Shown here piece after piece: positions 78 to 223 of a DNA stretch of 300 nucleotides. The notes beneath the pieces were generated by a model. That model did no database searches, was not told the DNA's origin, and saw nothing but the letters and a program-made list of their open reading frames with translations. Position numbers and translations under genes: made by a program. The number at the start of each line of letters is the position of its first letter. The stretch's first letter is position 1. Origin of the DNA: Escherichia coli (GTDB lineage Bacteria; Pseudomonadota; Gammaproteobacteria; Enterobacterales; Enterobacteriaceae); assembly GCF_003334355.1 (NCBI RefSeq), contig NZ_QOWP01000117.1; one strand, written 5' to 3'.

Positions 78-93
78 ATATGGGTGTTACCTG

Positions 94-120
94 AAAGATT
101 TCTACTCGGAACCAATCTTT
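94..120 (-). other. AU-rich hairpin (7-bp stem, 13-nt loop) immediately after the CCA-AUUUUAA of the tRNA 3'-end remnant
   Basis: In RNA sense: AAAGAUU-GGUUCCGAGUAGA-AAUCUUU. The arms are exact reverse complements (plus strand aaagatt 94-100, aatcttt 114-120). The large loop and AU-rich stem make stability marginal. Confidence 0.3.
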
Positions 121-143
121 AAAATTGGTGGCTCGTGCAGGAT
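119..143 (-). repeat. Truncated tRNA-Lys 3'-end remnant: 3' half of T-stem, 3' acceptor strand, CCA and 7-nt downstream flank, duplicated inside the spacer
   Basis: Plus strand 119-143 (ttaaaattggtggctcgtgcaggat) versus 217-241 (ttaaaactggtgggtcgtgcaggat): 25 nt with 2 mismatches, at 125 (t vs c) and 132 (c vs g). Similarity stops abruptly on both sides (144 g vs 242 t; 115-118 vs 213-216 unrelated). The 5' partner strands needed for acceptor and T stems are absent upstream, so this is not a functional tRNA. Confidence 0.75.
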
Positions 144-197
144 GACTCGCTTCGCTCGCCCTACGGGCCGTTGCTGGCGTAACGTTATCCTTCACGC

Positions 198-220
198 TTA
201 ACATCTGAGTTTGATGTTAA
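198..220 (-). other. AU-rich hairpin (8-bp perfect stem, 7-nt loop) beginning 3 nt after the CCA of the upstream tRNA-Lys
   Basis: In RNA sense: UUAACAUC-AAACUCA-GAUGUUAA. The arms are exact reverse complements (plus strand ttaacatc 198-205, gatgttaa 213-220). There is no GC-rich stem and no following U-tract, so it is not a canonical intrinsic terminator. Confidence 0.4.
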
Positions 221-223
221 AAC

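Follow-up and report, generated by a model that had tools for sequence, protein, structure and literature searches.

The 300-nt stretch of DNA that we analyzed (the window) is almost certainly the lysY-lysZ interval of the Escherichia coli lysT tRNA operon, with two lysine tRNA genes and a 146-bp transcribed spacer carrying an RtT-type repeat. Nothing speaks against the assignment to the lysY-lysZ locus. It rests on the sequence and the flanking genes, not on the 146-bp length of the spacer. The operon, its gene order, its spacings, its processing pathway and the RtT family are published or routinely annotated, and the locus is an ordinary known feature. The placement of the window in a known tRNA operon is correct, yet of little discovery value.

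Two tRNA-Lys genes (anticodon ttt) were detected in the window by ARAGORN, at positions 2-77 and 224-299, both on the minus strand. Each matched the Rfam tRNA family (RF00005) at 79.2 bits, with a cloverleaf, the anticodon UUU and an encoded CCA. The two genes are 76-mers that are 100% identical to each other, and their starts are 222 apart. Since they occupy 2-77 and 224-299, the spacer at 78-223 is 146 bp long, which is the distance given in an earlier note on this DNA. Because both tRNAs lie on the minus strand, transcription runs from right to left in the window, also as claimed there. The gene at 224-299 is in the lysY position, promoter-proximal of the pair, and is identical to K-12 lysY; the gene at 2-77 is in the lysZ position and is identical to K-12 lysZ.

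In the RefSeq annotation of K-12 MG1655, the operon consists of lysT (780554-780629), valT (780765-780840), lysW (780843-780918), valZ (781068-781143), lysY (781147-781222), lysZ (781369-781444) and lysQ (781577-781652). The gaps are 3 nt for valZ-lysY, 146 nt for lysY-lysZ (781222 to 781369) and 132 nt for lysZ-lysQ. The earlier note had given 146 bp for lysY-lysZ and about 132 bp for lysZ-lysQ, and these gene spacings proved accurate. The discussion in PMC4176162 gives spacer lengths of 135, 150, 147 and 133 nt, where the annotation has 135, 149, 146 and 132 nt; three of the four are off by one.

We performed the BLASTN comparison with E. coli and the inspection of the flanks that had been proposed for checking the placement in the lysT operon. 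The reverse-complemented window aligned to K-12 lysY..lysZ without gaps. The K-12 spacer (781223-781368) has the same position, the same 146 nt and identical flanking tRNA-Lys genes, and 139 of its 146 nt are identical to the window spacer at 78-223 (minus strand). An exact copy of the window is present in ATCC 8739 (L002 2208-2507). In this strain, the cluster lies between cpoB and nadA, in the order pal, cpoB, seven tRNAs and nadA. The neighbors predicted in the earlier note were both found there. A tRNA-Val gene (L002 2510-2585) starts 2 nt past window position 300, the window itself stopping short of it, and a third tRNA-Lys gene (L002 2001-2076) lies 131 nt past window position 1, so that the window genes have tRNA-Val 3 nt upstream and, after a 132-nt spacer, tRNA-Lys in the lysQ position downstream. 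These neighbors match those of K-12 lysY-lysZ, where valZ is 3 nt upstream and lysQ 132 nt downstream. Upstream of the operon, between pal and cpoB, Rfam detected the CpoB/ybgF intercistronic RNA thermometer (RF02782, 119-142 bits; L001 1-128 and L002 3928-4066).

The spread of the window sequence was analyzed by megablast of the 300 nt against 5426 complete E. coli genomes. All 5426 gave matches, and at least 80% of the window was matched in one place in 4272 of them. Many E. coli chromosomes match the full 300 nt with 100% identity (E = 6e-155), at a place where three tRNA-Lys genes are adjacent, so that chance is no issue for the tRNA-Lys pair and its spacer. Parts of the window match several places per genome (median 6). 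The spacer alone was matched with at least 99% identity in 747 of the 5426 genomes and over at least 80% of its length in 4067, and it is single-copy per genome in the exact-match strains. The matches labelled "plasmid" were all to non-mobilizable records of 0.28-5 Mb that are chromosome-like, and a plasmid origin was rejected.

Compared with K-12 lysY..lysZ, the window differs by seven substitutions (window positions 180, 132, 123, 111, 110, 102 and 81), which all fall within the spacer. The identity of the spacer is 95.2%, the value also obtained with the K-12 lineage strain DH1. Thus, the window is not K-12 itself. Its allele is distinct from that of K-12 and is the allele of ATCC 8739, E. 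coli C and many other strains, in which the spacer is 100% identical.

In the Rfam search, the window matched RtT (RF00391) at 47.8 bits, which is marginal against the gathering score of 45. The K-12 allele scored 54.4 bits. The lower score of the window allele is due to two of the substitutions, an A.C mismatch that weakens hairpin P2 (window 180) and a change in the copy of the tRNA 3′ end (window 132). Matches at or above the gathering score were found in every long spacer of the operon in both K-12 and ATCC 8739, and one further copy was found in K-12 past the lysQ terminator. The RtT alignment in the window spans 126-292, with the 5′ half of the model (positions 1-55) placed on the tRNA body and a 44-nt insertion. 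Therefore, the true unit is shorter than the Rfam interval. Its boundary was given by E. coli NRZ105822, in which the lysY-lysZ spacer is only 48 nt, ATTTTAAAGATTGGTTCCGAGTAGAAATCTTTCAGGTAACACCCGTAT. This sequence equals window 78-125 in the transcript sense with one difference, and thus the unit corresponds to window 126-223 (98 nt, minus strand). It occupies two thirds of the spacer. PGAP labels some such units in the lysT operon "RtT sRNA", and RefSeq has no annotation for the lysY-lysZ spacer.

The unit resembles the RtT RNA of the tyrT operon (rttR, RF00391) in several respects. [quoted passage not shown] A 3′ module is common to both, consisting of a GCGUUGC...GCAACG hairpin, a CCCG-A/U-AGGGCGA hairpin, a short hairpin, GAGU-C/A-AUCCU and the 3′ end of the host tRNA through CCA. 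In contrast, tyrT rtT is 171-178 nt long, whereas the window unit is 98 nt long, without the 5′ domain; in the alignment, ~80 nt at the start of rttR had no match. The window unit carries the end of tRNA-Lys and lies between tRNA genes, whereas tyrT rtT carries the end of tRNA-Tyr and follows the last tRNA, and the window unit has no tpr-like ORF, unlike tyrT rtT. The canonical full-length rtT architecture with the 5′ domain was not found in the window unit, which is a short form of the RtT family.

The lysT operons of K-12, ATCC 8739, NRZ105822, EC1 and O145:H28 RM13516 (L001-L005) were compared. A unit of 98-100 bp is exactly present or absent at all four long spacers. With and without the unit, respectively, the spacers are 135 and 35 nt for lysT-valT, 149 and 51 nt for lysW-valZ, 146 and 48 nt for lysY-lysZ, and 132 and 33 nt for lysZ-lysQ. 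The 146-nt form of lysY-lysZ is found in ATCC 8739, EC1 and K-12, in contrast to the 48 nt of NRZ105822. The lysT-valT, lysW-valZ and lysZ-lysQ spacers each carry one short-form unit with the same 18-nt tRNA-Lys copy and the same presence or absence between strains, and the lysW-valZ unit is nearly identical to the window unit over the 98 nt. The operon of O145:H28 RM13516 contains only four tRNA-Lys and two tRNA-Val genes with all spacers short; a Lys gene has been lost along with its spacer.

The spacer is 146 bp in about three quarters of the complete E. coli genomes, and approximately a quarter do not have the full lysY-lysZ spacer. Thus, the RtT-like unit is not required at this site. Spacer length, which the earlier note had used to identify the locus, fits where the unit is present but fails in strains without it, where the same site is 48 bp. 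The lengths of tRNA-operon spacers in E. coli vary as RtT-type units come and go, and loci should be called by sequence and flanks.

The unit closes with AUCCUGCACGAgCCACCA (window 143-126, minus strand), a copy of the 18 nt at the 3′ end of tRNA-Lys. K-12 and most Enterobacterales units carry this copy unchanged; in the window allele it matches at 17/18, with a C-to-G change at window 132. The same duplication was detected as a direct repeat (D2) between 119-143 and 217-241 with 92% identity. Each filled or empty indel is bounded by the 18-nt direct repeat, namely the 3′ end of tRNA-Lys and its copy, which is the signature expected of loss or gain by recombination or slippage. Thus, recombination or slippage between this copy and the 3′ end of the tRNA gene itself may remove the unit and possibly also introduce it. 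Such a process would account for the 146 bp in about three quarters of the genomes versus the 48 bp in the others. The region past lysQ is a second copy-number polymorphism. Downstream of lysQ, K-12 has a terminator, a long-form RtT copy and a duplicated terminator (L001 2154-2340), ATCC 8739 has a terminator only (L002 1724-2000), and EC1 has two annotated RtT sRNA copies (L004 853-1134).

In the unit, a conserved core is preceded by a leader hairpin that varies (window ~197-221). The core helices in the window are P1 (187-196/133-142), P2 (179-184/169-174) and P3 (165-168/158-161), and base pairs were counted on 73 unique Lys units. In P1 (GUGAAGGAU/AUCCUGCAC), eight of nine pairs are supported and one is a constant A.G. 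Two compensatory variants were observed in P2 (CGUUGC/GCAACG). P3 (GCCC/GGGC) is invariant and hence uninformative. P4 is a small hairpin with a GAA loop, whose middle pair is G-C in 43 units and A-U in 19; it can be claimed for the inner two to three pairs only. From Escherichia to Pectobacterium, the ~70-nt core hardly changes between genera, in contrast to the leader and the distal spacer, which diverge. When folded in isolation, the unit gave z = -2.46 in the window versus -3.52 in K-12, and folding of the whole spacer gave a modest z = -2.75. The mismatch in P2 and the substitution in the tRNA-end copy could be a sign of relaxed constraint on the window allele.

A scan for the core motif with one genome per species detected 68 loci, almost all of them in Enterobacterales. 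In 101 elements, GAGUC is followed by 18 nt that repeat the 3′ end of the upstream tRNA, which is Lys(UUU) in most cases. The copied tRNA is Arg(ACG) in Citrobacter sedlakii, Winslowiella and Pectobacterium, and Arg(CCG) in Marinobacterium. In some Citrobacter, a variant tRNA-Lys end is mirrored in the unit copies. The 5′ strand of P1 follows the tRNA type, being GGGGAAGGAU in Tyr units, GGGAGGAU in Arg units and AGGAGGAU in Winslowiella, where it matches a C-to-U change in the tRNA end. The spacers after tRNA-Lys are bimodal across Enterobacterales, with 14-66 nt where the core is absent and 121-162 nt where it is present; the Lys-Lys spacers of other Enterobacteriaceae are 140-162 bp. Enterobacterial-type tRNA-Lys spacers with the unit were also found on contigs labelled Chryseobacterium sp. 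18061 (L073) and Hylemonella sp. MAG (L035). These occurrences are likely contamination or mis-binning.

The remaining 48 nt of the spacer (window 78-125, minus strand) are the 5′ leader of lysZ and the sole spacer left in strains without the unit. They are conserved across Enterobacteriaceae, in filled and empty sites alike. A hairpin, ACCAAUUU-UAA-AGAUUGGU, is predicted at 111-129 (minus strand), in which the CCA of the tRNA-end copy, or that of the real tRNA in strains without the unit, pairs with a downstream UGG. Among 38 unique orthologous Enterobacteriaceae spacers, 35 have the CCA fully paired, versus 13.5% of shuffled tails, and co-variation is seen in the stems. By itself, the distal 52-nt segment is no more stable than shuffles (z = -0.36). 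Therefore, the CCA-pairing hairpin rests on cross-species conservation, not on folding energy.

In K-12, the seven tRNA genes are transcribed as a single transcript of ~1100 nt from the lysT promoter (Agrawal, Mohanty and Kushner 2014, PMC4176162). RNase P cuts the 5′ end of each tRNA, proceeding in the 3′ to 5′ direction. Cleavage of the long spacers by RNase E, that of lysY-lysZ among them, requires a defect in RNase P and is not seen in wild-type cells. RNase II and PNPase trim the long 3′ trailers of the Lys pre-tRNAs, and RNase T finishes them (PMC4176162). The lysT transcription unit is essential although lysV exists elsewhere (PMC11480407). The 146 nt are a transcribed and discarded spacer. 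Once RNase P has cut, all of it remains on lysY as a 3′ trailer, and window 78-125 is the 5′ leader of lysZ. Our scan of the operon for internal sigma-70-like promoters found none, which fits a single transcript. The consensus terminator scan missed the evident lysQ terminator, AAAAAAGCGCCCTAAAGGCGCTTTTTT (L002 1965-2000, minus strand), which is plainly visible in the sequence. The four "terminator-like" matches that it returned were rejected as P2 hairpins read on the non-transcribed strand (among them L002 2155-2170, 2376-2391 and 2871-2886).

We considered whether the unit is a functional RNA kept by selection, released by means of its tRNA-3′-end mimicry and acting in trans, for example in the stringent response as proposed for tyrT rtT, and not a neutral repeat. 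The release of RtT RNAs has been stated for tyrT and for other tRNA operons (PMC4986893). For the tyrT rtT RNA (Bosl and Kersten 1991, as cited in PMC3318445 and PMC4986893), release and an effect on the response to amino-acid starvation have been reported; its function is still called unknown. By analogy with tyrT, 3′ trimming may pause at ...CCACCA behind the stem, and an RtT-like RNA may thereby be released. Our literature search did not find expression data for an RNA released from the lysY-lysZ spacer. The near invariance of the ~70-nt core from Escherichia to Pectobacterium, while leader and distal spacer diverge, the compensatory changes in P2 and P4, and the co-variation of the P1 5′ strand with the tRNA-specific 3′ end in the Lys, Arg and Tyr units favor a selected RNA. 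However, individual copies are freely lost within E. coli, a pair of P2 is broken in the window copy, the literature still assigns no known function to RtT, and concerted evolution between the copies could also keep the core uniform. Judged from these sequence comparisons, a core so strongly conserved between genera speaks for some constraint on the unit, and the ease with which individual copies are lost speaks against a need for any one of them; any single copy would be dispensable. Taken together, a selected, trans-acting RNA is a reasonable possibility, to which we give somewhat less than even weight.

The duplicated tRNA 3′ end might instead be an attL/attR scar of a phage or an integrative element in the tRNA-Lys gene. 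Integrative elements typically duplicate the 3′ ends of tRNA genes, and the 18-nt copy lies 80 nt downstream of the real tRNA end. However, the unit is only 98 bp long and has no coding capacity, and its structured core is found again in tandem, both within the operon and in tyrT. A phage search with the window gave no genuine match. We consider an integrative scar very unlikely and retain the assignment of 126-223 to a short-form RtT-like unit.

There is almost no probability left for an assignment of the window to a different Lys-Lys interval, such as lysZ-lysQ or the lysV region of the valU operon. Another interval could be suggested by the identity of all six tRNA-Lys genes, by the RtT-like core common to all long spacers and by the several places that parts of the window match. 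However, the lysZ-lysQ spacer is 132 nt, with another leader (ATTTAAAGGTGG...) and another distal part (TCCTGAATGATT...), and lysV is followed by a terminator, not by another tRNA-Lys (PMC4176162). The other long spacers differ from lysY-lysZ in their distal parts and downstream genes, and the distal part ...AUUGGNNCCGAGUA...CAGGUAACACCC followed by tRNA-Lys was found in the lysY-lysZ spacer only. The full window spacer matches the lysY-lysZ position only, once per genome. A different Lys-Lys interval is refuted by the gapless full-length lysY-lysZ match and the flanks in ATCC 8739.

That the spacer encodes a small protein is equally improbable: an ATG-initiated ORF of 54 codons (54 aa) was listed at 40-204 on the minus strand, but it runs into a tRNA-Lys gene inside the tRNA precursor, is not annotated in RefSeq genomes and does not resemble Tpr, the product of the tyrT repeat, and both this ORF and one of 28 aa were rejected as coding on the grounds that they overlap tRNA genes.

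In a speculative reading that we hold to be rather improbable, the short-form units are dynamic RNA modules that mimic the tRNA 3′ end, adopt the end of the host tRNA (Lys, Arg or Tyr) and are still gained and lost in E. coli; together with the CCA-pairing hairpin, they might determine in which order or how fast tRNA-Lys matures, or serve as decoys for factors that recognize tRNA 3′ ends. If the mimicry of the tRNA 3′ end is real in this sense, the 146/48-bp polymorphism would affect the phenotype. With its naturally filled and empty alleles, the lysT operon could serve to test the function of RtT, a family without an established function.
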